DNA from: a virus
DNA: 64,000 bases
Reading direction: 5' to 3' (one strand)
Virus record (IMG/VR): IMGVR_UViG_3300025889_000083
Span: 32,001 to 96,000 of that record
Within the stretch, counting starts at the first letter, position 1, and every line of letters starts with the position of its first letter. Under the pieces are notes generated by a model. That model was not told the origin of the DNA and did no database searches. It saw only the letters and a list, made by a program, of their open reading frames with translations. Shown here piece after piece: positions 2,491 through 37,035 of this stretch. The position numbers and the translations under genes are program-made.

Positions 2491-2678
2491 CAACAATTAG
2501 TATAGACGGCGTCGAATATGATGTCGAAGGCATGACTAAAGAACAACGCTTGTTAGTAAATGCGATTGGGTATTGTGATAAAAGAAAAACAGAACTCGAT
2601 CACGAATTGGCAGCGATACAAACTGCTAGACAAGCGTATGTTAATGACTTAGGAGCACAATTAAAAGGAGAAGAATGA
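2487..2678 (+). CDS. Small coiled-coil hypothetical protein
   Basis: ATGA overlaps on both sides; ISIDGVEYDV N-terminus plus heptad C-terminus. Confidence 0.75.
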   Translation: MTTISIDGVEYDVEGMTKEQRLLVNAIGYCDKRKTELDHELAAIQTARQAYVNDLGAQLKGEE

Positions 2679-3328
2679 AAATCTTTATAGGATATGATAG
2701 TGAACACCCCGAAGCATACGAAGTATGTAAGGCAAGTATTTTAAAACATAATCCTTTACATGAGATACATCCTTTAATTAATAAGAAATTGAGAAAGAAA
2801 GGACTCTATGACAGACCAAAACACTTAATGGAAAGTACAGAGTTCTCCTTTACTCGATTTCTAGTTCCTTTGTTATGTAACTACACAGGGCGCGCACTCT
2901 ATTGTGATGGAGATTTTCTTTGGAGATGTGATCCTCAAGAACTTACACATCATATGAATGATGAAGATGTTGCAGTAGTAAAACATCCAAAGTTTAGTAT
3001 AAAAACTAAAAAGATGAAAAATAAAGGAAATGCAGATTACGATATGAAATATTGGAGTAGTTTGATGTTCTTTGATTGTGCAAAATGTGATAGTTTAACA
3101 AAGTGGTATGTGAGTAATGCTCATGCTGCACACTTACATGGCTTTTCATGGGCTAGTAAGATAGGCAGCATCCCAGCAAGTTTTAATGCACTTGTTGGAT
3201 ATTACGACTTTGGTAAAAAATATACAAAAGCCGTCCACTTTACAGATGGCGGACCGTGGCTGGAAGGCTACGAAAACGTGGAGTTTGCAGACGAATGGTT
3301 TCAGATAAAATCAGAAATAAGTCAGTAA
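2675..3328 (+). CDS. Glycosyltransferase (GT-A fold, phage 'IFIGYD' type)
   Basis: KIFIGYD, STEFSFTRFLVP, YCDGDF (DxD), WSSLM, HFTDGGPW. Confidence 0.85.
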   Translation: MKIFIGYDSEHPEAYEVCKASILKHNPLHEIHPLINKKLRKKGLYDRPKHLMESTEFSFTRFLVPLLCNYTGRALYCDGDFLWRCDPQELTHHMNDEDVAVVKHPKFSIKTKKMKNKGNADYDMKYWSSLMFFDCAKCDSLTKWYVSNAHAAHLHGFSWASKIGSIPASFNALVGYYDFGKKYTKAVHFTDGGPWLEGYENVEFADEWFQIKSEISQ

Positions 3329-3942
3329 TTCTAGTAGGAAACTCTGTCGAGTTATTAGAGTATGAATATGGAGACTATATAGAATCCTTTGATATAATAG
3401 TAAGATTCGGCAGAGGTATTCCTCGCCCAGATATTTATAAATCAGTTGGAAAACGAACTGATATCTGGATTACTGGATTTTTGAGAGCAAACTTTCATCC
3501 ACACTTTCCTACCGCACTGAAACTTCTTAATCGGTGCAGAATACACTTAAATAAAAAACCTACTCGAGAAATAGTTTTCGATCACGAAGTAATGTACTCA
3601 GATGATGAGTTAATGCTTATATTTGAAGAATTTGGTTGTAAAAACGGAGATGCAAATGCGTTGCGACCAAGTGCTGGTTATATGGGTGTTCATTATTTTG
3701 TGAATAAAATGAACATGTGGAAAAACTTAAATCTAATAGGTTTCGACTTTTTTCAAAAGAAACTTCCATGGAAACTAGGACAGGACTATCCTTCAAGTTG
3801 GCATTTACCAGAGAATACAATACAGAGAAGTCCACATGCAAAAGATAAAGAACGAGAAATCGTTAGTCAGTGGAACGAGAAAGGAATACTAAATTGGAAA
3901 ATACTTTCTGATTTGAAAGAAGAATTAATAGACTTTTCCTAG
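3295..3942 (+). CDS. GT29/sialyltransferase-like protein
   Basis: ILVGNS...IESFDIIVRF...VGKRTD sialylmotif-L-like; PSAG...LIGFDFF; C-terminal H..xE. Confidence 0.7.
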   Translation: MVSDKIRNKSVILVGNSVELLEYEYGDYIESFDIIVRFGRGIPRPDIYKSVGKRTDIWITGFLRANFHPHFPTALKLLNRCRIHLNKKPTREIVFDHEVMYSDDELMLIFEEFGCKNGDANALRPSAGYMGVHYFVNKMNMWKNLNLIGFDFFQKKLPWKLGQDYPSSWHLPENTIQRSPHAKDKEREIVSQWNEKGILNWKILSDLKEELIDFS

Positions 3943-4884
3943 AATATAACCTGCTTGAAGTATTTTTCGTGTAGCTTGCTTTTGCTTTTCAGCTTTTAAC
4001 AAGATTCTTTCATTTACTCTAGCGTTTCTAAGATTTACAGGGATTCTGTCTATTAAATTTGCATATAGATCAAAAGGAACTGCTAATGCTACTCCCATAG
4101 GACAGTCAGCATATTCAGCAACTAAATATTTATGATCGCAACTAATAGAAAATGCTTTTCTCATTGCAATATTATGATTAAGAGTATCTGCTGTACCGAT
4201 AGAATCAACTTTGATAAGATAATCTACCTTCATACTTGCATACAAAGGCATATGTCCAAATTTATAAGTTTTTAATGCGTTAAAAAATACATTATTTCTT
4301 GCACCATTAATATAGGCATCAAGTCTGTGTTCTAATCCAATAACTGCAGGAGCTCTGCCGTCTTCAAAGAATAATTCATGATCTCCTATCTTATCTAGTT
4401 CATCCCAATTAAATAGCATAAAATTAGTATCTAAATCATTTTTCTCATGTGAAACTCCAAGTATATTGTAATAATTTCTATACATTGGATGCTCTATATA
4501 CTGCCATCTTTTAGGAGCCATAACAACACCTTTTTGCCAGTCTGCTGGTGGTAATTGTCCTACCCAGTCTCTAAGAAATATTCTATTGTCTCCGAACATT
4601 AAAACTCTTTTATTGAGTTTACCATTCTTACTTCCTTCGCCTCTATACCATCTTCTTATAAGAAGTAAAAATTTTGCTTGCCAGTTACCATTAGCTACCT
4701 TTGAAGGTATTTGATAGCATTTATAATTTTTGAAATTTCTGTCAATCCATTCAACAACTTCTTTGTCCCATTGATCTTCATGAAACCCAACATGTAGGCG
4801 AAAGCTATCCCCATCCCAATCTAACATGGATGCGAGTGTGAACATTCCGTACACTGGTTTGTATCTATAAATTACTTCTATCAT
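3925..4884 (-). CDS. Hypothetical protein, possible divergent GT-A glycosyltransferase
   Basis: 319-aa ORF in GT cluster; GDNRIF and DTNFMLFNWD resemble GT8 segments only weakly. Confidence 0.5.
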   Translation of the reverse strand: MIEVIYRYKPVYGMFTLASMLDWDGDSFRLHVGFHEDQWDKEVVEWIDRNFKNYKCYQIPSKVANGNWQAKFLLLIRRWYRGEGSKNGKLNKRVLMFGDNRIFLRDWVGQLPPADWQKGVVMAPKRWQYIEHPMYRNYYNILGVSHEKNDLDTNFMLFNWDELDKIGDHELFFEDGRAPAVIGLEHRLDAYINGARNNVFFNALKTYKFGHMPLYASMKVDYLIKVDSIGTADTLNHNIAMRKAFSISCDHKYLVAEYADCPMGVALAVPFDLYANLIDRIPVNLRNARVNERILLKAEKQKQATRKILQAGYILGKVY

Positions 4885-5795
4885 TTTGCCATCTTATATT
4901 CCCAGAAGGAGTGTAGGTATCTATCCATACGTTCTTCTGCATCGTTATCAAAGTTAAAAATTATACCTGAGTGTTTTGCACTAAGGAGTTTACATAGTGC
5001 TGTATATGCACCTTGTTGTGAACACTGATTTGATATAGCGTAGTAAAAACTTTCGTAAGTAAGTAGATTTTTTTCTCTTACATCTTTTGGTGTACTTACT
5101 AAGCGTAGTTTTTTACCTAGTAAAATTGCTATCAAACCCATTTCACTATTTGGTGCACAAGCTACTTCTTTTGCGTTCATAAGAAGTTCAAATCCACCTG
5201 ACTTTTTATTCAAGATTTTATCTGCTCCAAGTTTTTCTCTTAGCAGTGCCATCCAAATGTGTGCTGTTATTGGATGCGGTTTTACCATAAATCCATCTGC
5301 TACTGCCTGTCGCATTTTATTCCAGTCTAAAGTATTTTTATACATTAGATTACTGCCAGGCGGGAATATTACTTTATCATAGAACTCTGGATTTGTTTGT
5401 AAAACATATTTATTGTGAAGATTGTCTTTTATCTTTTGTATTCTATCTTCATCAATTTCTATATCGCCATTTACTATTCCAGCAAAAAACTTATCATTGA
5501 TTTTTATAGACGGAACTCTCATTACAATTCCTTTGCCTAAAAAATCAGTATAAAGCCATGCTCTTATAGTTGAGACTTCATTTGTATTAAACCAAATATC
5601 ATATTCAAATGGTCTACCTCTAAATGAATCTCTGATTACTCTTTTACGAAATTCTGCTAAGTCGTTAAGATCCTCTTTAGGTCTAAATGCGCTTCCTGAT
5701 TTCATAAAATGAGTTGGTATATCACCAAGACATTCATTTATTGTTAGAGCTTGAAGTGGCTTTTTTGGTTTTACTATTCCGCCTTCTTGAGCCAT
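4881..5795 (-). CDS. KpsS/KpsC-like (capsule synthesis, beta-Kdo transferase-like) glycosyltransferase
   Basis: VKPHP motif followed by ELL..A..V...NSEMGLIAILLGK. Confidence 0.65.
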   Translation of the reverse strand: MAQEGGIVKPKKPLQALTINECLGDIPTHFMKSGSAFRPKEDLNDLAEFRKRVIRDSFRGRPFEYDIWFNTNEVSTIRAWLYTDFLGKGIVMRVPSIKINDKFFAGIVNGDIEIDEDRIQKIKDNLHNKYVLQTNPEFYDKVIFPPGSNLMYKNTLDWNKMRQAVADGFMVKPHPITAHIWMALLREKLGADKILNKKSGGFELLMNAKEVACAPNSEMGLIAILLGKKLRLVSTPKDVREKNLLTYESFYYAISNQCSQQGAYTALCKLLSAKHSGIIFNFDNDAEERMDRYLHSFWEYKMAK

Positions 5796-5965
5796 TCTCT
5801 AAACTCCTTTTGAAGTTGGTAAAGTACCACTTCAATATTTTTTATTCTTTCTTCATTTTCGCCCATATTATCAAATATGGCTGCCATCATGCTTTCTAAT
5901 TTCTTATTTACATAATCGGCGTCTACTTTTGTATCTTTATGTCCTTCTATCAAGTCTCGCTCCAT
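5774..5965 (-). CDS. Small coiled-coil protein
   Basis: Overlaps both neighbours; heptad pattern. Confidence 0.65.
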   Translation of the reverse strand: MERDLIEGHKDTKVDADYVNKKLESMMAAIFDNMGENEERIKNIEVVLYQLQKEFREWLKKAE

Positions 5966-8610
5966 TTAGAGCCATCCCAATAGGACTGCCCTAGATCTTG
6001 AGCACTTGCCACTTCTGTATCGAAGATTGTTCCTAATGTGGAGGCGGTTATTCTTTCATAAATCACAGTATTAGTTGCTGTTGCAAATACTGTGAGGTGA
6101 TCTGTAGTTCTGCTGGTCTCTGTAAGTCTATTTGAACTTGTTGTTCTAACTGTAGCGGTGGATTGCGTAGTATTAAATGTTGTGGTTGTAGTATATGCTG
6201 TAGTTGTAGCAAATAGAGTAGCAGTTGATCTTGTAGTATTAAATACTGTAGTTGTTTCTCTAGTAGTGTTAAATGTTGTAACTGTTGCATAAGCAGTTGT
6301 AGTTGTATATGCAGTAGTTGTAGCTTTAGTTGTAATGTAAGTTGTTGTAGTTGTATATGCTGTAGTAGTACTATAAGCAGTTGTTGTTCCTTGAGAAGTA
6401 TTAAATGTTGTAGTTGTTTCTCTAGTAGTGTTAAATGTGGTTGTAGTCGTATACGCTGTTGTAGTTGTATAAGCAGTTGTTGTTGCGTTACTTGTTATAA
6501 ATGTAGTTGTAGTATTATATGAAGTTGTAGTTGTATATGCTGTAGTTGTAGCTTTACTGGTTATAAATGTTGTAGTTGTTGTATAAGCAGTTGTAGTTGT
6601 ATAAGCTGTAGTTGTAGACTTACTGGTTATAAATGTTGTGGTTGTGCTATACGCTGTTGTAGTTGTATATGCAGTAGTAGTTGCCTTCGAAGTATTAAAT
6701 GTTGTAGTTGTACTTCTTGATGTACCAGTAGCTCTTGATGTAATACGTGAAGTTATATATGCAGTTTCATAGTTTGTTATTCTAGAAGTTGCTGTATTAT
6801 CAATATATGCTGTGGTTGTACCTCTAGCAGTATTTGTATTATTTGTAAATCCAGTATTATCTACATAAGCTGTTGTTGTACCACGAGCTGTATTTGTTGT
6901 ATTTGTAAATCCTGTATTATCTATAAATGCTGTAGTTGTATTTCTCGCTGTGTTTGTTGCATTTGTAAATCCAGTGTTATCTATAAAGCCTGTCGCAAAT
7001 GCTGTTGAGTTCGTAAATCCTGTAGCACGAGCAGTATTTGTGTTTCGATAAGTTGTTCTTGCTGTGTTTGTAGTGTTTGTAAATCCAGTAGAGTTTGTAA
7101 ATCCTGTACCACGAGCTGTATTCGTATTTCTATAAGTTGTTCTCGCAGTATTTGTTGTATTTGTAAATCCAGTTGAGTTTGTAAATCCAGTAGCGTATGT
7201 AGTAGATCCACTAAACGCAGTATTTCTAGAAGTATTTGTCCATCTAGTAAAGAAACCTTCTGACTGATCTCCGTATACTGTAATATTTTGGAATGTAGTT
7301 AATCTTATACCAGATGTAATTCTAGTTGTGTTTCTAGCAGTATTTGTATTTCTGGATGTTGCTGTATTGTCTATAAATCCAGTAGCAAAAGCTGTTGAGT
7401 TTGTAAATCCAGTATTTCTTGATGTGTTTGTATTTCTGGAAGTTGCAGTATTATCTATGAAACCTGTAGCAAAAGCAGTCGAGTTTGTAAATCCTGTGCT
7501 ACGAGAAGTATTTGTATTTCTGTATGTAGTTCTCGCTGTGTTTGTTGCTCTTGCAGTATTTGTGTTGTCAATAAATGCAGTACCTGTAATTCTAGCGGTA
7601 TTTGTCGCTCTTGAAGTGGCTGTATTGTCAATAAACGCTGTAGATGTAATTCTAGCAGTGTTTGTAGCTCTAGCTGTATTTGTAGCATCAATATATGCTG
7701 TAGATGTAATTCTAGCAGTGTTTGTTGCATTTGTAAACCCTGTAGTTCTACTTGTTGTGATAGTTGTATCATATGAAGTAGTATATGTAGTAGTGGTATT
7801 GTAAGCTGTGGTTGTAGCTTGTGAAGTATTAAAAATTGTAGTAGTACTTCTTGATGTTGCTGTACCTCTACTTGTACCAGTAGCTTGTGATGTATTGAAA
7901 GAAGTTGTTGTACTTCTTGATGTACCAGTACCTCTACTTGTTGCAGTACCTTGTGATGTATTATAAGAAGTTGTTGTACTTCTTGATGTTCCAGTACCTC
8001 TACTTGTTCCAGTAGCTTTTGAAGTATTATAAGCTGTAGTAGTTGATCTACTTGTACCAGTTCCTCTACTTGTTGCAGTTGACTGAGTAGTATTAAATGT
8101 AGTTGTTGTTGACTGTGTTGTGTTAAATACAGTTGTTGTCTCTCTACTTGTACCAGTACTTCTTGATGTTGCTGTTCCTTGCGATGTATTATAAGCTGTT
8201 GTAGTACTTCTACTTGTAGCAGTTCCTCTTGATGTACCAGTTGATTGTGTAGTATTAAATGTAGTTGTTGTTGACTGACTAGTGTTAAATGTAGTTGTAG
8301 TACTTTGTGAAGTTCCTGTTGCTCTACTTGTTGCAGTTGACTGAGTAGTATTAAATGTAGTTATTGTATTAAAGACAGTGCTAGTATCAAAGACAGTAGT
8401 TGTATTAAAAGTAGTTACCTGAATACCTGATACATATGTTGTTTCAGTATTTGTAACTCGCAATGTATCATGCACTGCAACAAATGGTCCTTCTAACGAA
8501 CCACCATCATTTACATAAACTTCATTGGCACGACGAAGCGTACCGCCATCGTTGACAGCTACAAAGCGTAACTGGCGTAAAGTGCCATTGTCGTTTACAT
8601 AAATTGCCAT
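5950..8610 (-). CDS. Thr-rich repetitive fibre-like protein with mirror-complementary halves
   Basis: 886 aa of 4-6 residue Thr-rich units; N-terminal VNDxG x3; in late tail operon. Confidence 0.85.
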   Translation of the reverse strand: MAIYVNDNGTLRQLRFVAVNDGGTLRRANEVYVNDGGSLEGPFVAVHDTLRVTNTETTYVSGIQVTTFNTTTVFDTSTVFNTITTFNTTQSTATSRATGTSQSTTTTFNTSQSTTTTFNTTQSTGTSRGTATSRSTTTAYNTSQGTATSRSTGTSRETTTVFNTTQSTTTTFNTTQSTATSRGTGTSRSTTTAYNTSKATGTSRGTGTSRSTTTSYNTSQGTATSRGTGTSRSTTTSFNTSQATGTSRGTATSRSTTTIFNTSQATTTAYNTTTTYTTSYDTTITTSRTTGFTNATNTARITSTAYIDATNTARATNTARITSTAFIDNTATSRATNTARITGTAFIDNTNTARATNTARTTYRNTNTSRSTGFTNSTAFATGFIDNTATSRNTNTSRNTGFTNSTAFATGFIDNTATSRNTNTARNTTRITSGIRLTTFQNITVYGDQSEGFFTRWTNTSRNTAFSGSTTYATGFTNSTGFTNTTNTARTTYRNTNTARGTGFTNSTGFTNTTNTARTTYRNTNTARATGFTNSTAFATGFIDNTGFTNATNTARNTTTAFIDNTGFTNTTNTARGTTTAYVDNTGFTNNTNTARGTTTAYIDNTATSRITNYETAYITSRITSRATGTSRSTTTTFNTSKATTTAYTTTTAYSTTTTFITSKSTTTAYTTTTAYTTTTTFITSKATTTAYTTTTSYNTTTTFITSNATTTAYTTTTAYTTTTTFNTTRETTTTFNTSQGTTTAYSTTTAYTTTTTYITTKATTTAYTTTTAYATVTTFNTTRETTTVFNTTRSTATLFATTTAYTTTTTFNTTQSTATVRTTSSNRLTETSRTTDHLTVFATATNTVIYERITASTLGTIFDTEVASAQDLGQSYWDGSKWSET

Positions 8611-8621
8611 TTAATTATCTC

Positions 8622-8840
8622 TTAATATACGTACCAGACGTGTCCACTACTTGTTGATCCTACGGAAACTGGAGCAGTTGTTGTTATTGTGTAAGGAAGT
8701 CGAGCAGAAGCAATAGTTCCACTATCGATTTTATCGGCAGAGATAGTTACACTTGCCATTCCTCTACTTGAATCAATACTTTCTGTTCCGTCTACGGATA
8801 GACCAGCGTCTTCGATATTAAAGTTTAGTTTTACACCCAT
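8622..8840 (-). CDS. Small fibre adaptor-like protein
   Basis: SGTIASARLP and GHVWYVY fibre-type motifs; between two fibre genes. Confidence 0.6.
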   Translation of the reverse strand: MGVKLNFNIEDAGLSVDGTESIDSSRGMASVTISADKIDSGTIASARLPYTITTTAPVSVGSTSSGHVWYVY

Positions 8841-8841
8841 T

Positions 8842-11800
8842 TTATACCTCTATTGTTGTTCTAATAAATTTGTAAGTCATGCTATCTGTTGAAGCAGGAG
8901 TTACTAATAATCTTACATTACCACCGCTTATATCTGCATCAAATGTTGCCTGAGCAAGATTGTCAAAGATAGATGCGAACTGTGTTAAGTATACATTTGT
9001 TCCGTCATGGAAAAGTAAAATTTCTAATGCTTGATAATCCCCATCAGTTGTGTTATGAACCTGTACTATATATTTTGCAGTTCTAAATGTTGCTGAAGCG
9101 AAAGAATCAAGTGCAAATTGTGATGTTGAAGATGAACTTCCTGTACCTACATCCATACCCGCCACTTCATCAATGTGAAGTTTTTGTGGTGGGCTTGTAT
9201 CTTGAATACCTAATACACCTGCTGCATTTGTTATATCAGTAGTTCCATTACCAAGTGTTGTTGTTCCTTGTGTATTTACATCACCTGAGAAAGTTACTGT
9301 GCCACTAAATGTTTGTCCACTTAATGCACCACTTGCTAACTCACTTGTTCCAATAGCATTTGCGGCAATCTTAGCTGAAGTTACTGAATTACTTGCTAAA
9401 TGAATTGCATCTACAGATCCAGTTACTAACTCACTTGAATCTACTGAGTTTGCAGCAATTTCAGATGAACCTACTGCATTACCTGCTATTTCACTTGAGC
9501 CTACTGCATTTCCAGCAATCTTAGTTGCGGTTACTGCATTTGAAGCAATGTGTATTTCATCAATAGATCCACTTACTAATTCGCTAGAATCTACTGAGTT
9601 TGCTGCTAAGTGTGATGCATCTATAGAATCAGTTGCAATTTTATTTGCGGTTACTGCATTATCTGCAATATGAATATCATCAATTGATCCACTTACTAAT
9701 TCACTGCTATCTACTGAGTTAGCGGCGATTTCTGTTGCTGTAACTGCATTTACTGCAATTTTCGCATTTGTTACTTGTAAGTCTCCAATATGAATAGTAT
9801 CAATGCTACCACTTACTAACTCACTTGAATCTACTGAGTTAGCGGCGATTTTTGTTGATGTTACAGCATTATCTGTTATTTGTAAAGTACCTACGCCATT
9901 AGTTTCAATTTCACTTGTTCCAACTGAGTTTGCTGCAATATGTCTTGCTACTATTGAATTACTTGCAATTTCGTCACTTGTTACAGCATTTGCGCTGAAG
10001 TGAATTGTATCAATAGACCCACTTGCTAATTCGCTGGAGTCTACTGAGTTTGCAGCTATTTTAGCAGCTGTTACAGCATTTGCTGCTATTTTTGCTTCGG
10101 TTACAGAATCAGTTGATAAGTGAACTGCATTAACAGCACCACTTATAATTTCAGCAGAATCTACTGCATTTGCGGCGATCTCTGAAGATCCTACTGCTCC
10201 TGCACTAATATGTATTGCTAGAATAGAATCAGTTGCAATTTCACTTGATCCAACTGAATTTTCTGCAATTTCTTCTGATCCAACTGCATTTGCAGCGATC
10301 TGTAAAGAGCCTACTGCGTTAGCAGCTACTGCACTTGCTGTTCCTGTTAAGTTTCCTTCGACATTTGCTACAAGAGTTCCTACTGTATAACCAGAAGCAC
10401 CTGTGTCTACAGTTGAAGTAGGAGCTACTTGTGAATCAACAAATAGTTTCCATTTGTTGTCATTTGCATCTCTGAAAAGACCTGCATATAAATCTGTTCC
10501 TGCTGGATCGTATAATCCATAAAGTCCGATATCGATTGCATCTGTTGAATCATTTGTAGATGCAACCTGTACAAGACCATCTTCAACTGTTAATGTTGTT
10601 GAAGAAACTATAGTCTCGCTTCCTGAAACAGTTAAGTTTCCAGAAACTACTAAGTCATTCATTGTAAAGTTTGAAGTATTTGATAATTTCGCACCAGTAA
10701 TAGCATTGTCTGCTAAATGAATAGTTAATACGCTACCAGTTACTAACTCACTTGAATCCACTGAGTTTGCGGCGATTGTTTCTGCAGTAACTGCATTTGA
10801 AGCAATTTTATTTGCTGTAACTGCGTTTGCGGCAATAGCATTTTCTACAACTGCACTTGCTGATAAGTGAATTGAATCGATAGAGCCAGTTACAAGTTCG
10901 CTACTATCAACAGAGTTTTCTGCTATTTCTGCGGAACCTACTGCATTTGCGGCTATTTTAGCAGCTGTTACTGCATTGTCACCTAAGTTATGAGTTGTAA
11001 CATTTCCTTCTACAATATGTCTTGTTAAAATACTATTTGTAGCAATTTTATCTGATGTAACTGCATTATCTTGAAGACAGTGTGTTTGAATTGAGTTACC
11101 AGCAATAATTCCATGAGTAACAGAGTTAGAAGCAATTTCAACTCCTGTTACAGCATTTGCTGCTATTTTAGCAGTTGTTACTGCTAATGAAGCAATCTGC
11201 GCTGATCCAACTGCATCACTTGCTATTTCACTTGTACCTACTGCATTTGCACTAATTTCAGCATTTGTTATAGAGTTATCTGCCATCGCATCATTAGTAA
11301 CTGCATTTGTTCCAATATGAATTGTATCTACTGCTCCAGAAGCAAGATGTACTCCTGTAACTGCATTACTTGCGATTTGAGTTGATTGTACTGAGTTTAA
11401 TTTAATTTCTGCGGAGCCTACTGAATTAGAAGCTATTTTTGCAGTTGTAACTGCATTAGCTGCTATTTGTACTGTTCCTACTGAATCAGTTGCTAAATGT
11501 AAAGCTGTGATTGAATTTGTTGATATTTCACTTGATCCTACAACGTTCTCTGCTATCTTAGCGGCAGTAATTGCGTTGTCGGTAATATGTGTAGTTTGTA
11601 CTGCATCGGTTGCAAGTTCTGAACTTGTAACCGCATTTTCAGCGATTTCACTTTGACCTACTGCATTAGCGGCTATCTGTGGAGCACCGACAGCATTTGA
11701 GGCGATCTCTGCAGTATCTACAGAGTTAGCGGCAATTTCATTTGAAGTGACAGCATTTGCAGCTAGTTTTGCAGTTGTAACTGCACCAGTTGAAATATGA

Positions 11801-12099
11801 ATAGAATCAATAGACCCACTTACTAATTCGCTGGAGTCTACTGAGTTTGCAGCAATAGCTGCTGCATCAATTGAGTTATCGCTTACTGCTGTAACTGCTG
11901 TACTCGCTAATTCCCTAGATGTAATAGCGTTTGCTTGAATCTTAGCGGAAGTAATCGAGTTAGTTGATAGTTCTGAAGTTGTAATACAGTTTGCAGTAAT
12001 TTCTGATGCAGTAATACTATTGCTTACAATTTCGGTTGTACCAACTGAGTTTGCTTCTAGCGATGCTACAAGTGCTAGTTGTTTACCTATAAGTGCCAT
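8842..12099 (-). CDS. Tail fibre with 10-residue repeats
   Basis: Many IAANAVTAAK/IAANSVDSSE decads; globular insert; C-terminal FRTAKYIVQ domain. Confidence 0.85.
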   Translation of the reverse strand: MALIGKQLALVASLEANSVGTTEIVSNSITASEITANCITTSELSTNSITSAKIQANAITSRELASTAVTAVSDNSIDAAAIAANSVDSSELVSGSIDSIHISTGAVTTAKLAANAVTSNEIAANSVDTAEIASNAVGAPQIAANAVGQSEIAENAVTSSELATDAVQTTHITDNAITAAKIAENVVGSSEISTNSITALHLATDSVGTVQIAANAVTTAKIASNSVGSAEIKLNSVQSTQIASNAVTGVHLASGAVDTIHIGTNAVTNDAMADNSITNAEISANAVGTSEIASDAVGSAQIASLAVTTAKIAANAVTGVEIASNSVTHGIIAGNSIQTHCLQDNAVTSDKIATNSILTRHIVEGNVTTHNLGDNAVTAAKIAANAVGSAEIAENSVDSSELVTGSIDSIHLSASAVVENAIAANAVTANKIASNAVTAETIAANSVDSSELVTGSVLTIHLADNAITGAKLSNTSNFTMNDLVVSGNLTVSGSETIVSSTTLTVEDGLVQVASTNDSTDAIDIGLYGLYDPAGTDLYAGLFRDANDNKWKLFVDSQVAPTSTVDTGASGYTVGTLVANVEGNLTGTASAVAANAVGSLQIAANAVGSEEIAENSVGSSEIATDSILAIHISAGAVGSSEIAANAVDSAEIISGAVNAVHLSTDSVTEAKIAANAVTAAKIAANSVDSSELASGSIDTIHFSANAVTSDEIASNSIVARHIAANSVGTSEIETNGVGTLQITDNAVTSTKIAANSVDSSELVSGSIDTIHIGDLQVTNAKIAVNAVTATEIAANSVDSSELVSGSIDDIHIADNAVTANKIATDSIDASHLAANSVDSSELVSGSIDEIHIASNAVTATKIAGNAVGSSEIAGNAVGSSEIAANSVDSSELVTGSVDAIHLASNSVTSAKIAANAIGTSELASGALSGQTFSGTVTFSGDVNTQGTTTLGNGTTDITNAAGVLGIQDTSPPQKLHIDEVAGMDVGTGSSSSTSQFALDSFASATFRTAKYIVQVHNTTDGDYQALEILLFHDGTNVYLTQFASIFDNLAQATFDADISGGNVRLLVTPASTDSMTYKFIRTTIEV

Positions 12100-17133: not shown

Positions 17134-17678
17134 AAATTTGCTGTATCTCCTAAAGTTGGATGGTTTCCTAGATTTTGTGTTGTACCACTTGAATCTACAT
17201 AAGTATTACCCATAAATCCAAAAGCATTTGGTATTTTTAAAACGACAAAAGCACCCGCTGCACTTGTTCGTGAAGTATTGCCTGGAGAATATGATACATT
17301 CATACGGAGTGGAGTTACACTTGTATTTGAAATTTTATAAGTATCATACTCTCTAATAAGATCTTCTGTAAAACTGTCAAAGCTTGGATTACTTACTATA
17401 TTTTCATTATGTAAAATTGCTGTATTTGCCTCATTTACTAAAACCTCTGGAATATAAGTTAATGTTGCCTTACTTCCAGATGTCCAAGTTATAGCGGATG
17501 AAGTTGCTGTAAAATTTGCACCTGCATATATCAATCCTGTTCGTACTGTTGTAGAATCAAAAATTAGATTATTTGCAGTTGTTGTCTCAACATTTGCTGA
17601 AGGTTTTGATACCCATAGCCCAAAATTACTTGTGCCTCTTGTTGCTGTTCCTTTACCAAATAAAACTCTACTAGGCAT
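17127..17678 (-). CDS. Minor tail protein (paralogue 1)
   Basis: RVLFGKG..TRGTSNFGLWVS. Confidence 0.7.
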   Translation of the reverse strand: MPSRVLFGKGTATRGTSNFGLWVSKPSANVETTTANNLIFDSTTVRTGLIYAGANFTATSSAITWTSGSKATLTYIPEVLVNEANTAILHNENIVSNPSFDSFTEDLIREYDTYKISNTSVTPLRMNVSYSPGNTSRTSAAGAFVVLKIPNAFGFMGNTYVDSSGTTQNLGNHPTLGDTANLW

Positions 17679-20600
17679 TATGTTCCATCCGATATAATTA
17701 TTTGTTGATTTACGGAACTAAAAACAATATTTGCACTTGATAATGACGTTGAATTTAGTGTCCACCCACCAGCAGATCCGCCTGCTACTGTTAATGTTAA
17801 ACTGTCTGTTGATGATATTTTAGCATTTGTAATCGCATTTGCTGCAATCTGTAAACTATCTATACTTCCTGCAATTATTTCAGAAGTACCAATCTGGTTA
17901 GCTGCTATCTTTGCTGCTGTAATTGCATTAGCGGCAATTTGTAATGTTCCAATAGATCCACTAGATATTTCTGCTGTACCAACTTGATTAGCTGCTATTA
18001 AAGCCGAAGTAATAGCATTTCCAGCTATAAGTGCAGTTGTAATACTTCCACTAACTATTTCTGCAGTACCAATTTGATTAGCTGCTATTAAAGCCGAAGT
18101 AATACTGTTTGCTGCAATTTCACTTGTACCTACTTGATCTGCGGCTATCTTTGCTGATGTAATTGAGTTTGCCTGAATCATTGCGCTTGTAATAGATACA
18201 GAAGTTATTTTTGCAAACTCAATTCCTGAAGCATTGATACTTGCATTTGTAACAGCTCCACTTTCTATCTTTGCATTTGTAATTGCATTTGCTGCAATCT
18301 CATTTGTATCTACAGCACCAGAAGATATCTTCGCATTTGTAATTGCATTTGATGAAATCTGGTTAGTACCAACTGCATCACTCTGAATACTTACAGAAGT
18401 AATACTGTTTGCAGAAATATGAGAATTATCAATAGCATTTGTTACAATCGCTGCGGCTGTTATTGAGTTTGCTGTTATATGGGAACTATCAATGGTGCCA
18501 GCTTGAATAATTGCAGCATTTACAGAGTTAATTGATAATTCATTATTTGTAATTGAGTTTGCTGCTATAATAGCTGCTGTTACAGAGTTTGCTGTTAGTT
18601 CATTATTTGTAATTGTATTTGCTGCTATCTGTGCGGAGCCAACTGAGTTTGCAGCTAATTCTGAACTGGTAATTGATCCTGCAATAATCTGTGCTGCTCC
18701 AATAGCATTTGCTGCCATCTTAGCATTTGTAACAGCTCCAGTGGCAATTTGTATAGCTCCCACAGCTCCAGTTGCAATACTTACTGAGTCTATACTATTT
18801 GCAGCTATTGTTTCATTTGTAACTGAGTTACTTGCTAGTAGTGTTGAAGTGATCGCATTTGCTATAATTTGTGCTGTATTAATAGCATTAGTTGCGACTT
18901 TTCCACTTGTTACAGCATTTGCTGCTATTTTAGCTGCTGTAATTGCACTTCCTGCTAATTGGTTTGTATCAACAGCACCATTGGCAATAATAATACCAGT
19001 TACAGATCCAGTGGCTAATTGAGTTGTTCCAACTCCACCACTAGCAATAATTGTTCCAGATACAGAGCCAATGGTAAGTTCTGCACTTCCAATAGAGTTT
19101 GCAGCTATCTCAACTGAAGTAATTGAGTTTGCTGCCATTAGGGCATTTGTAATAGTACCAGAAGCAATTTCTACTGCGGTAATTTCATTTGCTCCCACAG
19201 TGAATGAATTTATAGCATCTGCAGTTAACTGAGCTGATGTAATACTATTTGCTTGAATAGCAGCAGTTCCAATAGCATTTGCTGCTATTTTTGCTTCTGT
19301 AACTGAGCCCGCTGCAATTGAAGCAGTAGTAATAGAATTAGAAGCTATTTTTGCATTTGTAATCGCATTTGCGGATACATGCACAGTATCAATAGATCCA
19401 CTTATAATTTGGGCACTATCAATAGAGTTTGCGGCTATTTCTGATGTACCAATAGCATTTGCAATAATCATTGTGCTATCTATTGAGTTTGCAGCAATAT
19501 GAGAACTATCAATAGAATCAGCAATAATTGCTACTGATCCAATACTATTTGCGGCAACTTCTGATGCTCCAATAGAGTTTGCTTGAATATGAATTGCTTG
19601 TATTGAGTTTGAAGCTAATTCTACACTTGTAATTGAGTTTGCTGATACTGTAAACGCAGCTACAGCACTTGAAGTTAACATAAGAGAAGTAATACTATTT
19701 GCTTGAATAGCAGTACCTCCAACAGCGTTTTCTGCTATTGTTGTTTCAGTTACAGCACCATCACCAATTTCTCCAGTATTTATTTTGAATTTAGAAGTAA
19801 ATTGCTGTAGTGAATATGTACCTGATGTATTTGCTACTACTGCTAAAATTGCGTCTTTTGTTCTATCTATTTTGTAATTTTGGAAGAAAACATTTGCTCC
19901 GCTATACGCTCTTAATGCACCATCTGAAATCTGTATGCTAGTATTACTATAGACATAAGTTACTTTTGCATATTGTCGAGTAGTACCTGCATCGCCTAAA
20001 ACAATTAGGTCACCAGTTTGATAATCACTTAAGAAAGTAGTACTACTTCCTTCTAATATTGTCTCTCCTGCATCTACAGAGAATGTACCATTTGCTTGTC
20101 CAAAGTCTGTATTTGCATCATTAATTGTTCTTTTTGTAAAAATAGGATAAAGTTTATTTCCTTGTGCATCTTCTGATGTAGTATCTGTTCTATATTCAAT
20201 AGCTTGTAATGGGTCTGCTGTGTTGCTATAGTCATATAATAAATATGCTACGCTGTTTGCAGACATTGCACTAAAGTCTTGCTGTGTTTGTGCAGTATTT
20301 CCGCTTGATACAGTTATAAAAGTTCCAGCGTCTACTTGTGGAGGTAAGTAATTATATGAAGTATTTGAAAAACTTACTACTCCATTAGCAGCTATTGTTA
20401 ATGTTGTATCTAAAAATCCACCTAATGGAATGTCTTTACCTGGTTGACTTGATAATATATGGGCTCCGACGGCATCATCAACACCAATACGTCTGCTTCT
20501 CCATCGAGAAAAGTTTTCTCTAATATTTACTGTTCTTACTCTTACTCGATATGTACCTGGCATTACATTTTCCCAAGTATATGAAGTATCTTCAGGGTCT

Positions 20601-23600
20601 ACACTAAATCTTTCCCATTTTGCATTTCCATCGTATCTACCTTTACCATCCCATGCTACCTGATATTCTTTTAAATGCTCGTACTCACTTGTAACTGAGT
20701 TTCCGTTTTTATCAAGTCTTGTTGATAAAGGAGCTTGCCAAGTAAGTAGTATTTTATATCCTAAATCTGGAGCTGCTGATCCTGATACATTTACGTCTCC
20801 TGATGAATTATCACCTGAGCCCATAGGTATTGCTTTAACTGCTAGATTTCTAGGTACTGGTACTTCTTCAATGTATTTTGGAGGTCTATTTACATCAGGT
20901 ATTGCAGGTATTGCCCAACCTCTATCAATTAAATCATATTTTCCAGAAGTATGCTGTACTGCTGTAATTTCAAAGATTCTTCCATCATTTTCTTTTATGG
21001 CTTGAATCATAAACTCTTTTGAACTTCCAGCAAGTTTTTCACCATCTGCAGAAGTTGTTGTTATTGACCAAATAACATCTCTATTTGGAGCAGCACTAAA
21101 TGCGCTTGCTACTGTTATAGAGCTTGATGTATAACTATCTATAACTTGAGATTCTATTCTTGAATCTTCAGACCAAAGTAATTGTACTAGACCATCAGAA
21201 TCATCTTTACAGTTTGCTGCTTTTGCTGCAGTATCTATCGTATTTCCACCTTCATCTGTAAGTACTAACTCTCCTTTTCGGTATGTAGTACCATTGATAG
21301 TTGCTGAATCTTGTCCGAGATAAGCACCACCAGATGGGTATATTAAGTGTAAAGTTGAGGTTGCTGTTCCTGAAAGTGTAACAGCTCTATCTATATTAAT
21401 TGTTGTAGTTGTAGAAGATGAAGAAACGCGACCACTAAATTGAATATCATCATAGTCTGCGTCTTGTATGTATATTGAATCGCCTGGTTGTAAGAAACCT
21501 GCGTTTAATCCAGTTTTAAATGATACTATTTCAGTATCAAGTTTCTCTGAGAATAAATGGAACTTACCATATCTATGTGCTTGTCCCTGTGAAGTACAAC
21601 CAAATGCTACTGTTTCTTTTGGAATAATTTTACCTATTCTTGCAATCTCATCATAGTCTTCTACAATTTCTACTGCTTGTTTGTAGTGATTATCTGGGTC
21701 ATTCCAAGTTACACGAATTTGATTTGATCTAAATCTTTGTGAAGATGAACTGTATGTAAACATTCCATCAATAACATTACCTTTTGTAAAGGTATAAACA
21801 GGACTTTTTTCCTGCATGGCGGCTAAAGTTATTTGTCCATTTTTCCAGACTAAGATTCCTCTAAATAAAGTTAGGAAATCTTTAACAACTTTTACAGCTT
21901 CTTGTAAATCTTTAATATAAACATTCGCAGTAAAACGAGGTTCTGATCCACCTTTTCCATCTGGTACTAATTCATCGCAATATTTGGCAATAGCAAATAG
22001 AGAATATTTGTCTATTAAATCAAAATTATTATCTGGGTCTAACCAACGTCCTAATCCATATCGAGGATTAGTCATAATGTCTAAAAATACCCACGCTGGG
22101 TTATTACAATAGACTGCATTATAGTTAGGGCTTGTTGCGTCAAATTCGTTTTTATCGCCTCTAAACTTTCCATCCCAGTCTTGGTAAGTTGATGCATCTA
22201 CTCCAGTACTTACATTACGAGTATAACTTGCAGTTGTTCTTCTAATTCCTGTATTCGCAAAAGCTTCTTCTGCTGGAAAATAGTTTGTTGGAACTTTTAT
22301 TTTTAGACCACGTACTTGATATGCTCTTGATGGCATTTCTCTAAAGTCTTTTGCATCAATAATAACTGCTCCAAATGCTGTATATGGATAGTTAAGTTTA
22401 TCTTCTACTATACACTCAATAGATTTAATTACAGACTGATTCTCATGTACCCAGTTACCATATTCAAAATTTGTTGCGGTTGGTCGCTGAATTGTAACTT
22501 GGAAGTCATCAAATGGTTGGAATTTTTCAGTATCAAATGAAAGAGTTGCAAGTGTAGGAGTTACTGTGTGTTTATGAATAACACTTGTTGCTGATTTTGG
22601 TAAAGTATTTGCATGTAAAGATCGACCTGATAAAGTTTTTGGTCCGTGTACAACGACTTCTTCTACCTCAGATCCATTTCTAAAGTATTTAAATAAAATT
22701 CTGTATTCTACAAAAGAAGGACCTGTTGCGTTATTTGAACTATTTTTCTTTCTAGATTCAAGTCTAGGCATTTCCACATTTACTTTAATATGATCAACAA
22801 TGCCAGGATCTCCTGTTCCTATTAAAGTACTTGCTCCATAGGTGCGTCCTCCTGAGGTTGGCTCAGCTAATGGATCTCCATTTGCATCATCTAAAGTTAG
22901 TGTTGCATTACTTGGGTTTCCTGAAATTAAAGATTGTGGTAGCTCCTCGCCTATTTCATGTGCAAATGATGCACTACCAACACCTTTGGGTGATTGTAAA
23001 AATGGTTGCTCTCTTTCTCCTGTTCTGAAAGCATATCCAAAGTTTGTAAAATTAAAACGTGGAGATTCTGATTCAGGTATTCTTGGAGTACTTAGAATAA
23101 TAATTGTGTTTGCTTGATCGACACCACCACCAGTTGCTAGTGTTGCTGTATTTACAGAGTAACTTGCTATTCTATCAACAAGGTCTATCTTACAGTCTGC
23201 ATTTGATACAGTAGTTGCGGGAGCAAGTGCTACTTTTACTGCGGCAGTATTAATAAATTCTGTGATTGTGGCTGCAAAATTACCTCCATCTACTCCTGCT
23301 CCTTCAATTCTTAATTGAGGTACTAATTCTGTAGATGCAGTTTGAACATCATCGCTTGCGAATGACATTATGCTTGTATTTGTTGTAACTATTTTGGAAC
23401 CAGCAGTGGTGCTGACAGCGGCTGTGCCTTTCTTTTTACCCCCAACCACTAATACCTGTCTAACACCATCGCTAGTATCTAAACCATCAAAAACATTTGT
23501 AGAAAGATTATCGGTTAGTTTATTATTTGCTGAATCATATGCGATATCCGTACCTTTTCTTGTTGCAAAACTTTCGGCATACTGATATGAAACTGCTGGA

Positions 23601-23773
23601 GCTCCGTTAATAAGAACACTAGCGGCACCATCAATTAGACCTTCTATTGGTCCTTCTGAGACTAAGTCATACACTACAGCTGTTTGATGCTTTAGTGATG
23701 TTACATTTGTTGATAAATTGCCTGGTGCTGCTGATCCTATACCACCATTTGCAGTTGGGTTATTAAGTGCCAT
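17678..23773 (-). CDS. Central tail tip protein (lambda gpJ-like) with FnIII domain and C-terminal decad repeats
   Basis: DLVSEGPIEGL, NNPAWVFLDIMTNPRYGLG, YCDELVPDG..EPRFT, AFGCTSQGQAHR. Confidence 0.92.
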   Translation of the reverse strand: MALNNPTANGGIGSAAPGNLSTNVTSLKHQTAVVYDLVSEGPIEGLIDGAASVLINGAPAVSYQYAESFATRKGTDIAYDSANNKLTDNLSTNVFDGLDTSDGVRQVLVVGGKKKGTAAVSTTAGSKIVTTNTSIMSFASDDVQTASTELVPQLRIEGAGVDGGNFAATITEFINTAAVKVALAPATTVSNADCKIDLVDRIASYSVNTATLATGGGVDQANTIIILSTPRIPESESPRFNFTNFGYAFRTGEREQPFLQSPKGVGSASFAHEIGEELPQSLISGNPSNATLTLDDANGDPLAEPTSGGRTYGASTLIGTGDPGIVDHIKVNVEMPRLESRKKNSSNNATGPSFVEYRILFKYFRNGSEVEEVVVHGPKTLSGRSLHANTLPKSATSVIHKHTVTPTLATLSFDTEKFQPFDDFQVTIQRPTATNFEYGNWVHENQSVIKSIECIVEDKLNYPYTAFGAVIIDAKDFREMPSRAYQVRGLKIKVPTNYFPAEEAFANTGIRRTTASYTRNVSTGVDASTYQDWDGKFRGDKNEFDATSPNYNAVYCNNPAWVFLDIMTNPRYGLGRWLDPDNNFDLIDKYSLFAIAKYCDELVPDGKGGSEPRFTANVYIKDLQEAVKVVKDFLTLFRGILVWKNGQITLAAMQEKSPVYTFTKGNVIDGMFTYSSSSQRFRSNQIRVTWNDPDNHYKQAVEIVEDYDEIARIGKIIPKETVAFGCTSQGQAHRYGKFHLFSEKLDTEIVSFKTGLNAGFLQPGDSIYIQDADYDDIQFSGRVSSSSTTTTINIDRAVTLSGTATSTLHLIYPSGGAYLGQDSATINGTTYRKGELVLTDEGGNTIDTAAKAANCKDDSDGLVQLLWSEDSRIESQVIDSYTSSSITVASAFSAAPNRDVIWSITTTSADGEKLAGSSKEFMIQAIKENDGRIFEITAVQHTSGKYDLIDRGWAIPAIPDVNRPPKYIEEVPVPRNLAVKAIPMGSGDNSSGDVNVSGSAAPDLGYKILLTWQAPLSTRLDKNGNSVTSEYEHLKEYQVAWDGKGRYDGNAKWERFSVDPEDTSYTWENVMPGTYRVRVRTVNIRENFSRWRSRRIGVDDAVGAHILSSQPGKDIPLGGFLDTTLTIAANGVVSFSNTSYNYLPPQVDAGTFITVSSGNTAQTQQDFSAMSANSVAYLLYDYSNTADPLQAIEYRTDTTSEDAQGNKLYPIFTKRTINDANTDFGQANGTFSVDAGETILEGSSTTFLSDYQTGDLIVLGDAGTTRQYAKVTYVYSNTSIQISDGALRAYSGANVFFQNYKIDRTKDAILAVVANTSGTYSLQQFTSKFKINTGEIGDGAVTETTIAENAVGGTAIQANSITSLMLTSSAVAAFTVSANSITSVELASNSIQAIHIQANSIGASEVAANSIGSVAIIADSIDSSHIAANSIDSTMIIANAIGTSEIAANSIDSAQIISGSIDTVHVSANAITNAKIASNSITTASIAAGSVTEAKIAANAIGTAAIQANSITSAQLTADAINSFTVGANEITAVEIASGTITNALMAANSITSVEIAANSIGSAELTIGSVSGTIIASGGVGTTQLATGSVTGIIIANGAVDTNQLAGSAITAAKIAANAVTSGKVATNAINTAQIIANAITSTLLASNSVTNETIAANSIDSVSIATGAVGAIQIATGAVTNAKMAANAIGAAQIIAGSITSSELAANSVGSAQIAANTITNNELTANSVTAAIIAANSITNNELSINSVNAAIIQAGTIDSSHITANSITAAAIVTNAIDNSHISANSITSVSIQSDAVGTNQISSNAITNAKISSGAVDTNEIAANAITNAKIESGAVTNASINASGIEFAKITSVSITSAMIQANSITSAKIAADQVGTSEIAANSITSALIAANQIGTAEIVSGSITTALIAGNAITSALIAANQVGTAEISSGSIGTLQIAANAITAAKIAANQIGTSEIIAGSIDSLQIAANAITNAKISSTDSLTLTVAGGSAGGWTLNSTSLSSANIVFSSVNQQIIISDGT

Positions 23774-34977: not shown

Positions 34978-37035
34978 TTAAGCAGAAGCTTTGTACATTT
35001 GTGCCCACTTTGAAGTAGCTCCATCGATAAGATCGAGGAATCCAATTCTTTGTGAAGCGACAAGCACTCTTCTTTGGTTAGCAACTTCGTAGTCAGACTC
35101 GATGGTTACACCTCTAAGTCTTGGAACTACATAGTTTCTTGGGTAAACAGCAATTGCGTTAAATTTAGCAGCTGCTTTAGTAGCGAACTCGTCACAGAGT
35201 AATACTCTTGATCCGAAGACCTGTCCGATTTCACCAGATAGCTTAGTAGCCATGTCGCCAACTAGGTTAGCATCTTGGAACTCAGCATCTTCTAGAAGGT
35301 TGTAGTACACGTCTTGTGAAACGATGTATACGACTTCTGATGGGTTAACACCATATTTACCCATGTTCTTTCTTAGAGCAAGAAGGTCAGCTGCAGTTAC
35401 AACGTCAGAAGCTGCGAAAGTTCCTGATGGTTGTGTGTAGTCTGAATCATTTCTTGCTAAGTGACATAGACCTTCGAAAGAAGCACCGCCAGTTCCGAAA
35501 GCACCGTCAGCGTCGTCACCGACGAGGATTGCGTTCTCGATTGCTCTAGCATGTGATCTAACCATAGACTCTCTAATTAAAGGAAGAATTGGTAGAATTG
35601 CATCTTCTTCAGTCTCGTTACCTAAGTATGATTGTGAAATAAGTTTTTTGGTTGAAAGAGTTCTTTCAGTTAAATCAACACCACCGTAAGCGGATCCATA
35701 TGTATCACCTCTTTGTGCCAAGTTACCATGTGGTGAAGAACCACTAGCAGTTTGGTTAGATGTGAACTCAGCGTATCCTGAATCTGGTAATATTGGGATA
35801 ATCATATTAGCAGAAGTCATTGGGATTTCTCTAAATAGAGGAGCCAAGACTAGCTCATTTTGAATATCTCTTTCAATGTTGGTTGAAACAACTTGCTCGA
35901 AGTCAGCTGAAGATACACCCACACCTGAATGTGCGTTTACTTTCTGCATAACGTCTTTAGCATATTTGTTTTCCCAACCTTTTCCAGTAGCTAGACCAGC
36001 GAATTTAGCATCGATGATATCTTTCTCAAATGCTTTTTTCCAATCGCCTTCTCCTTTTCTGTCTGAGAAAATTCTTTTAGACTCACGAATATTCATGATT
36101 TCTTCAGATTTTTCAGCAAGTTGTTTTTCAAGAGACTTAACGACTTGCTCTAAATTAGAGTAGTCTGATTTAACTCTTTTCTCAACATCTTGCATTAACT
36201 TCTCAGCACCTGAGAGTCCAGCTTGGACTATAGTTTTTTGCTCTTCCTGCTTTGCTTCCTGAGCAGCCTTTTCAGTAGCTTCAACTTCAGCTTGTTTTGC
36301 AACAGCTTCACTTTCAGCTTGCTTTTCAGCTGCTTTCTGTTCGGCTTGTTTCATAGCAATTTTAGCAGCAGTTTCTTCTGCTACTTGTTTTGCAAATGAA
36401 GCTAAGTCGAACTCTGGAGCTACAGGAGTTTTATTTTCTTCTGACATTTTCGTCTCCATTTTTTTGGCTTTCGCCTTACTTGGCTGCTCAACTTTAACAG
36501 CGTCTGCTGGTCCAGAAGAGTTAGCCTTAATAAACTCGGATTTAAACTTGTTATATTCATCCATACTATCAAATGATTTTGCGATGGAGAATGTAGCGCC
36601 TTGGTTGCAAGGAACCGAAACAACGCTCACTTCAAAAAGTTCTGCATCCTTGATTCTATATCCGTCGGTTTCAGTCATATAATCTGCGTCCTTGACTCTG
36701 AAGCCGACAGAAAATGCTCCAAGGACACCGTCTTTAATTAAATCTTTAATGTGACCAGATGCTTTTGAAATTCTTGCAGATAGTTCTAGACCATCTTTAT
36801 TAACTTCTACACCTGTTGCTCTACCAATAGGTTGGTTATAATCATGGTTAAAAAGAATAACTGGATTATTTTTAAAATTATCTAATCCACCTTTTGTCCA
36901 TGCTTCTGCTTCAATAATATCACCAGCTCTATCGAGACCGTTGGTACTAGCTGATCCTTTAATATCTAGTCCACCGTCATCAGTTTCACCAAGTGATTTA
37001 AATGAACTTGTCCAATGAAAAATTTTATTTGACAT
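34978..37035 (-). CDS. Prohead protease - scaffold - HK97 major capsid protein fusion
   Basis: ILFNHD, AFSVGF, LFEVSVVSVPCNQ protease; coiled coil; T5-like capsid; internal GGAG+ATG at 36447. Confidence 0.92.
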   Translation of the reverse strand: MSNKIFHWTSSFKSLGETDDGGLDIKGSASTNGLDRAGDIIEAEAWTKGGLDNFKNNPVILFNHDYNQPIGRATGVEVNKDGLELSARISKASGHIKDLIKDGVLGAFSVGFRVKDADYMTETDGYRIKDAELFEVSVVSVPCNQGATFSIAKSFDSMDEYNKFKSEFIKANSSGPADAVKVEQPSKAKAKKMETKMSEENKTPVAPEFDLASFAKQVAEETAAKIAMKQAEQKAAEKQAESEAVAKQAEVEATEKAAQEAKQEEQKTIVQAGLSGAEKLMQDVEKRVKSDYSNLEQVVKSLEKQLAEKSEEIMNIRESKRIFSDRKGEGDWKKAFEKDIIDAKFAGLATGKGWENKYAKDVMQKVNAHSGVGVSSADFEQVVSTNIERDIQNELVLAPLFREIPMTSANMIIPILPDSGYAEFTSNQTASGSSPHGNLAQRGDTYGSAYGGVDLTERTLSTKKLISQSYLGNETEEDAILPILPLIRESMVRSHARAIENAILVGDDADGAFGTGGASFEGLCHLARNDSDYTQPSGTFAASDVVTAADLLALRKNMGKYGVNPSEVVYIVSQDVYYNLLEDAEFQDANLVGDMATKLSGEIGQVFGSRVLLCDEFATKAAAKFNAIAVYPRNYVVPRLRGVTIESDYEVANQRRVLVASQRIGFLDLIDGATSKWAQMYKASA

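Follow-up and report, generated by a model that had tools for sequence, protein, structure and literature searches.

We have analyzed a window of 64,000 nucleotides (positions 32,001 to 96,000 of the 104,148-bp IMG/VR virus record IMGVR_UViG_3300025889_000083), with emphasis on the open reading frame (ORF) at 5950-8610 (-), which is the final structural-looking gene of the late tail block. This gene encodes a protein of 886 aa, designated P0001, with a threonine content of 38%, and the whole protein matched no Pfam-A or PHROG family. The late genes of the record lie on the minus strand, and profile searches identified among them a terminase, a portal, a protease-plus-capsid ORF, a major tail protein, a 1245-aa tape measure and minor tail proteins; the downstream part of the block holds a J-like tip protein of 2031 aa and then several fibre genes. 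The best cultured relatives of the protease-plus-capsid ORF are T5-like phages (~37% identity), and the source phage is a member of an uncultured marine T5-like siphovirus lineage.

The coding region of P0001 can be read, on the minus strand, as an N-terminal base module (residues 1-50; 8461..8610) made of three tandem ~14-residue V-N-D-x-G-T-L-R units, an outgoing or left arm (residues 51-449; 7264..8460), a short apex turn S450-E451-G452 (7255..7263), a returning or right arm (residues 453-851; 6058..7254) and a C-terminal base module (residues 852-886 plus the stop codon; 5950..6057). Residues 51-449 are partnered by residues 851-453 in a register of i+j=902, such that the right arm complements the left, the apex lies at the centre of the mirror register behind the closing rungs Q449:F453 and D448:F454, and the conserved C-terminal end is set opposite residues 16-50. 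The centre of the protein, TVYGDQSEGFFTRW, corresponds to nt 7240-7284; an earlier note on this DNA (the original prediction) had placed a unique centre at nt ~7240-7280 with mirrored spacing of the units around it, and both statements hold.

Both base modules are conserved. Eleven positions of the N-terminal module (N6, D7, G9, L11, R12, N20, D21, G23, R26, N34 and D35) are invariant in 19 aligned sequences; the module matches phrog_13729 (E 1.4e-8), and a PDB profile search with its alignment gave no match. The same triple V-N-D-x-G-T-L-R module is also found at the head of the unrelated ~170-aa proteins P0024 and P0028, and it looks like a portable attachment module. At the other end, the sequence G-T-I-F-D-T-E-V ... 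W-D-G-S-x-W-S-E is kept in all homologues.

Between the base modules, the residues of P0001 alternate with a strict two-residue rhythm. Within residues 60-846, Arg (50/50), Phe (44/45) and Tyr (27/30) are found at even positions, with Ala (76/76) and Ser (73/75) at odd ones, and this beta periodicity runs for ~790 residues, unbroken across the centre. We scanned all antiparallel registers i+j=S for an aromatic residue (F/Y) opposite Arg, Lys or Gln, and a single register, S=902 with its centre at E451, gave 68-69 such pairs; inside the arms it had 0 like-like pairs, and it ran without gaps from rung 51:851 through rung 449:453. The best antiparallel register other than this one gave 30 pairs, and the best parallel like-like offset gave 41 pairs with 21 mismatched, vs. 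69/1 in the antiparallel register. The original prediction of self-complementary arms at the protein level is thus borne out; its barcode of ~40 consecutive aromatic and basic/polar matches was right in essence but an undercount (68). The proposed anti-correlation of the two classes also survived permutation: when the even-face residues were shuffled in one arm, only 12.6 +/- 2.9 complementary rungs were left vs. 67 observed, and upon shuffling the class labels alone, with marker positions fixed, the number was 35 +/- 3.9, with a maximum of 51 in 20,000 trials.

The even face comprises 100 Thr:Thr rungs, 28 Phe:Arg, 22 Tyr:Arg, 11 Phe:Gln, 13 Asn:Thr and 9 Asp:Thr. Of the 23 even-face Asp/Asn residues in the inner zone, 21 are located two residues after an aromatic that is partnered by Arg; this placement follows the same chain direction in either arm, as expected if an antiparallel ribbon has a local two-fold axis. 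The pattern suggests that each Arg may stack on its aromatic partner and bond the diagonal Asp/Asn. The odd face is small, harboring Ser, Ala, Gly, Asn and Thr, with Ile opposite Ala; large residues opposite large ones were counted in ~2 pairs vs. ~1.4 by chance (hand estimate). Two further registers with asymmetric like-like counts, S=896 and S=908, had been considered as a clue to trimer packing, and were set aside as an uninformative by-product of the 6-residue unit.

We asked of the DNA whether the symmetry, which has the look of a reverse complement, might be a nucleic-acid feature read via the genetic code, stemming from an inverted duplication of the DNA or from a hairpin in the mRNA. 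The left arm carries tandem arrays of 66 nt x4.3 (7814-8097), 60 nt x3.4 (7524-7725) and 84 nt x2.2 (7339-7527), and the right arm carries arrays of 84 nt x2.2 (7007-7194), 60 nt x3.2 (6794-6985) and 66 nt x3.9 (6432-6687). These arrays are symmetric about nt 7259, with matching period and copy number and similar decay, but a nucleic-acid origin would call for complementary sequences in the two arms, which they do not have. In addition, 5950-8610 contains no inverted repeats (seed 9, minimum length 14), and Thr codons (ACN) reverse-complement to NGT, so that complementarity in frame cannot give Thr:Thr rungs. We therefore give a nucleic-acid origin next to no credence; because there is no inverted DNA repeat, the symmetry resides in the protein and not in the DNA.

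Two scans of viral contigs yielded 93 loci with 62 distinct complete homologues of 742-1578 aa. The best mirror constant S-L was 15-18 in 62/62, with arms equal throughout, and ~38 of the 62 were near perfect, as exemplified by complementary/like counts of 130/1 (1556 aa), 124/0 (1483 aa) and 120/0 (1425 aa). Recognizing that a constant S-L could merely mirror the conserved ends, we relied on two further tests, based on local registers and on prediction of the turn. Local registers held the global value up to the centre. In proteins of 752-1578 aa, the register of the outer 200 residues predicted the sole internal Pro or [D/N/C]-P-E turn within 1-3 residues (e.g., Pro540/541 vs. a predicted centre of 540.0, and Pro795/800 vs. 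798.0), and this held even for members with inner repeats that are not readable by the two-class code.

The arms also change length together. In diverged pairs, insertions and deletions (indels) were of equal size and in mirror order between the arms, as evidenced by: 1) L031/L030, with 20, 18, 6 and 2 residues on the left vs. 2, 6, 18 and 20 on the right; 2) L041/L039, with +6, -6 and +12 on the left vs. +12, -6 and +6 on the right; 3) L059/L063, with +20 and +6 vs. +6 and +20; 4) L076/L053, with a long mirrored series. Nearly all of these indels were of even length, as a beta dyad requires. At the level of single residues, one compensatory swap was found, F258Q with R549F, between two 792-aa proteins differing at 21 sites. 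The original prediction had held that repeat expansions must be matched in both arms, which agrees with the equal arms of the 62 homologues and the mirror-ordered indels; it had also named repeat gains in one arm of homologues as evidence to the contrary, and upon examination no unpaired repeat unit was seen among the diverged pairs aligned. Neighbouring genes retain 50-85% identity between loci, vs. the rapid length variation of the fibre gene, and this fast variation fits a part that contacts the host.

A number of members depart from the simple code in their inner zones. In L016 and L029, for example, the readable stalks are separated by other Thr/Asn repeats spanning hundreds of residues. 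Among members with S-L=18, including L016:1723-4911 and L029, the inner 500-800 residues consist of other units with Cys, Trp and His (e.g., the motifs N-T-C-Y, T-D-N-V-I-V and N-P-H-T-N-N-T), the pairing of which the two-class code does not read; the central Pro loop is still at the predicted midpoint in these proteins.

Outside of these contigs, a homologous-protein search with whole P0001 and with residues 1-62 gave no match, with Thr-rich words probably swamping the candidates. A search of protein representatives found the family as short N- or C-terminal fragments only; four low-complexity eukaryotic proteins from that search were inspected and discarded as unrelated. A cultured-phage collection gave no DNA match and no tblastn match to the N-terminal module.

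What we observed directly is the mirror code with its conservation, the pairing of the indels and the placement of the turn; a beta conformation, pairing within one chain, a virion location and a length are what we infer. We consider it likely that P0001 is an intrachain antiparallel beta-hairpin of ~130 nm, serving as a fibre of the virion, with its gene in the tail-fibre block. Pairing within the chain is the simplest reading because i+j is constant over 400 rungs, the residues follow a dyad rhythm, the indels are even and mirrored, and a Pro/Gly turn is located at the midpoint; the location on the virion is argued from the position of the gene in the late tail block after the J-like tip protein and fibre genes. 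The chain would run out for ~400 residues as a beta strand, turn at S450-E451-G452 and return antiparallel, with residue i facing residue 902-i over the whole length. The even face would present Thr:Thr ladders in which each second or third rung places an aromatic (F/Y) opposite Arg, Lys or Gln. The tip would be a 3-residue turn; at the base, the N-terminal triple module would come together with the conserved 35 residues of the C-terminus, and the two would presumably anchor the protein to the virion. At ~3.3 Å per residue, the arms would measure ~130 nm, with ~100-250 nm for the family, and P0001 would be a thin member of the set of tail fibres of this marine T5-like siphovirus. We surmise that its length evolves by indels of repeat units that would survive only if matched in the opposite arm, as in RNA stems. 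The fibre may be a single ribbon or a bundle; e.g., three hairpins could pack with their small Ser/Ala/Gly faces inside, resembling the six-stranded needle of phage T4 gp37.

The register i+j=902 and the paired indels would be satisfied equally by an antiparallel homodimer, in which extended chains pair the N-arm of one with the C-arm of another to form a bipolar rod or sheet of ~260 nm, and the centre of P0001, being only 3 residues, could in principle stay extended. The homologues speak otherwise: their apex loops are D-P-E-x-G-like or acidic and 10-30 residues long, and their centres, which abound in Gly, Pro and acidic residues and sometimes hold hundreds of residues of other repeats, suggest a turn or tip and not a continuous strand. 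Moreover, a rod with an attachment module at each end fits no known virion appendage, and zippering within a chain would be kinetically favoured. On balance we regard pairing between chains as unlikely.

Several points weigh against the intrachain hairpin itself. AlphaFold2 without an alignment returned a predicted local distance difference test score (pLDDT) of 35.2 for the full protein and 35.7 for residues 372-530, with short strands and no long hairpin. To our knowledge, no solved structure provides a precedent for a two-stranded ribbon of 400 rungs that lacks a hydrophobic core. All homologues belong to a single phage lineage that shares one gene order, and the cases are thus phylogenetically non-independent. 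Finally, two one-arm indels, each the loss of a single repeat unit, were found between sequences otherwise 100% identical, one of 30 aa in L010 vs. L007 (L010:6001-9486 compared with L007:6001-9576) and one of 20 aa in L074 vs. L076; these variants may be collapsed assemblies of short-read repeats or very young mutations that precede compensation.

The low-confidence model with its many short strands, together with the low complexity and high Thr content, would also suit an unstructured, O-glycosylated, mucin-like spacer, or a compact beta-solenoid or meander, with the mirror arising as a by-product of repeat history. The genes next to the fibre gene are of interest here, as glycosyltransferase-like genes always adjoin it; four genes at 2675-5795 (both strands) flank it wherever the contig reaches that far. 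Two of these are co-directional downstream genes (3925..5795, minus strand) with glycosyltransferase-like predicted folds: the 304-aa product resembles Capsule_synth/KpsS (template modelling score, TM, 0.58-0.64, ESM Atlas) and the 319-aa product resembles GT-A/GT8 enzymes (TM 0.52-0.58, ESM Atlas); neither had a Pfam match, and PDB sequence searches with them were empty. The ORF at 3256-3942 has a marginal Pfam match to GT29 sialyltransferases (23.9 bits vs. a cut-off of 23), and the fourth flanking gene encodes 217 aa. From the predicted folds and the marginal Pfam match, the four genes are a possible virion-glycosylation set that could modify the Thr-rich fibre. Nevertheless, a mucin-like or solenoid protein leaves unexplained the absence of like-like pairs over 68 rungs, arms that are equal to the residue across a two-fold range of length, and the mirror-ordered indels with their compensatory swap; in addition, repeat periods of 20, 22 and 28 residues by zone are unlike a regular solenoid. 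We find such a protein quite improbable.

A more ambitious version of the intrachain hairpin can also be put forward. P0001 might be a free-standing two-stranded ribbon of ~400 rungs (~130 nm), held in register by its code (aromatic with Arg/Lys/Gln, Thr with Thr, and the diagonal Asp/Asn-Arg contact), evolving like an RNA stem, with Thr ladders decorated with sugars by the four flanking genes and with programmable length. Taken as a whole, we deem this combination doubtful.

Among known systems, SMC and Rad50 proteins fold one chain back at a central hinge or hook, with long arms that pair antiparallel, matched in length and with compensated indels. P0001 would resemble them in folding back with matched arms, but theirs are alpha-helical heptad arms of cellular ATPases, in contrast to the putative dyad beta strands encoded in a virion gene block. 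In the G5-E repeats of SasG/Aap and the single-layer sheet of OspA, long and thin beta sheets with much Thr and many polar residues are stable although largely exposed to solvent. These differ in architecture, being either chains of small domains with three strands each or a short sheet that connects globular domains, with no continuous hairpin and no mirror-complementarity; P0001 had no Pfam G5 match. Insect antifreeze proteins and bacterial ice-binding and ice-nucleation proteins are Thr-ladder beta-solenoids with flat T-x-T arrays, parallel strands and one constant repeat length. P0001 shares the Thr at alternate positions, but its periods vary by zone (60, 66 and 84 nt) and the register between its halves is antiparallel, unlike a solenoid.

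The nearest precedent for the out-and-back topology is the T4 gp37 needle, in which residues 811-881 and 1010-1026 together form domain D10 and the distal D11 is inserted between these two segments, such that the chain reaches the tip and returns (PMC6957217). The needle is an interwoven obligate trimer with seven His-coordinated iron ions and depends on the chaperones gp38 and gp57A (PMC6957217). Like the gp37 needle (D10-D11), P0001 would be a thin, beta-rich phage fibre with an out-and-back path, which for P0001 is suggested by the register and the turn. The needle arms, at ~100 residues vs. 400, are ~four times shorter, and gp37 is devoid of a two-class pairing code. Of the 886 residues of P0001, in turn, only 2 are His, and both lie outside the repeats, with no gp37-type His-x-His iron motifs; the protein also lacks sequence or profile similarity to the gp37/gp12 collar and needle families. 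The original prediction that no phage fibre with such a pairing code had been described agrees with our full-text literature searches and with a 16-class atlas of tail fibres (PMC12143355), in neither of which a fold-back hairpin fibre was found.

With regard to the surrounding genes, the order at each locus is a phrog_892 fibre, a 72-aa ORF, the hairpin gene, two downstream genes and then two convergent genes. The conserved 72-aa ORF (8622..8840, minus strand) was found by tblastn in the same position in 91 loci, with 68-93% identity among the matches listed. Its start and the stop of the preceding fibre gene overlap, 12 nt separate its end from the hairpin gene, and its C-terminus is G-H-V-W-Y-V-Y; an adaptor, a chaperone or an assembly factor is possible. 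The upstream neighbour at 8842-12099 (-) encodes a fibre of 1085 aa with a phrog_892 match (E 2.7e-124), a match that P0001 does not have. Phrog_892-type A-N-A-V-T repeats are present both in this fibre and in the C-terminal third of the J-like tip protein (17678-23773, minus strand), and this sharing suggests module exchange between central and side fibres. Further along, a single 685-aa ORF at 34978-37035 (-) matches profiles of both a head maturation protease (residues 11-307) and the major head protein, a match that covers two separate genes in its T5-like relatives, and it looks like a protease-capsid fusion. Two long ORFs inside the hairpin gene, 7328-7804 (+) and 7455-7772 (-), were judged to be low-complexity repeat by-products and not genes.

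Serving as a virion fibre is in itself nothing unusual, and T4 gp37 already shows the out-and-back topology on a small scale. If the hairpin is correct, P0001 would nonetheless represent a protein architecture without solved precedent at such scale, with its register and length written in a simple, readable pairing code. It would be a rare case in which tertiary contacts can be read directly from one sequence, and would display stem-like covariation, including covariation of indels, that is otherwise typical of RNA; it would also offer a natural template for beta-ribbon nanofibres of set length. For the phages themselves, it would mean a new class of host-reaching appendage, with lengths of ~100 to ~250 nm, in abundant marine phages.

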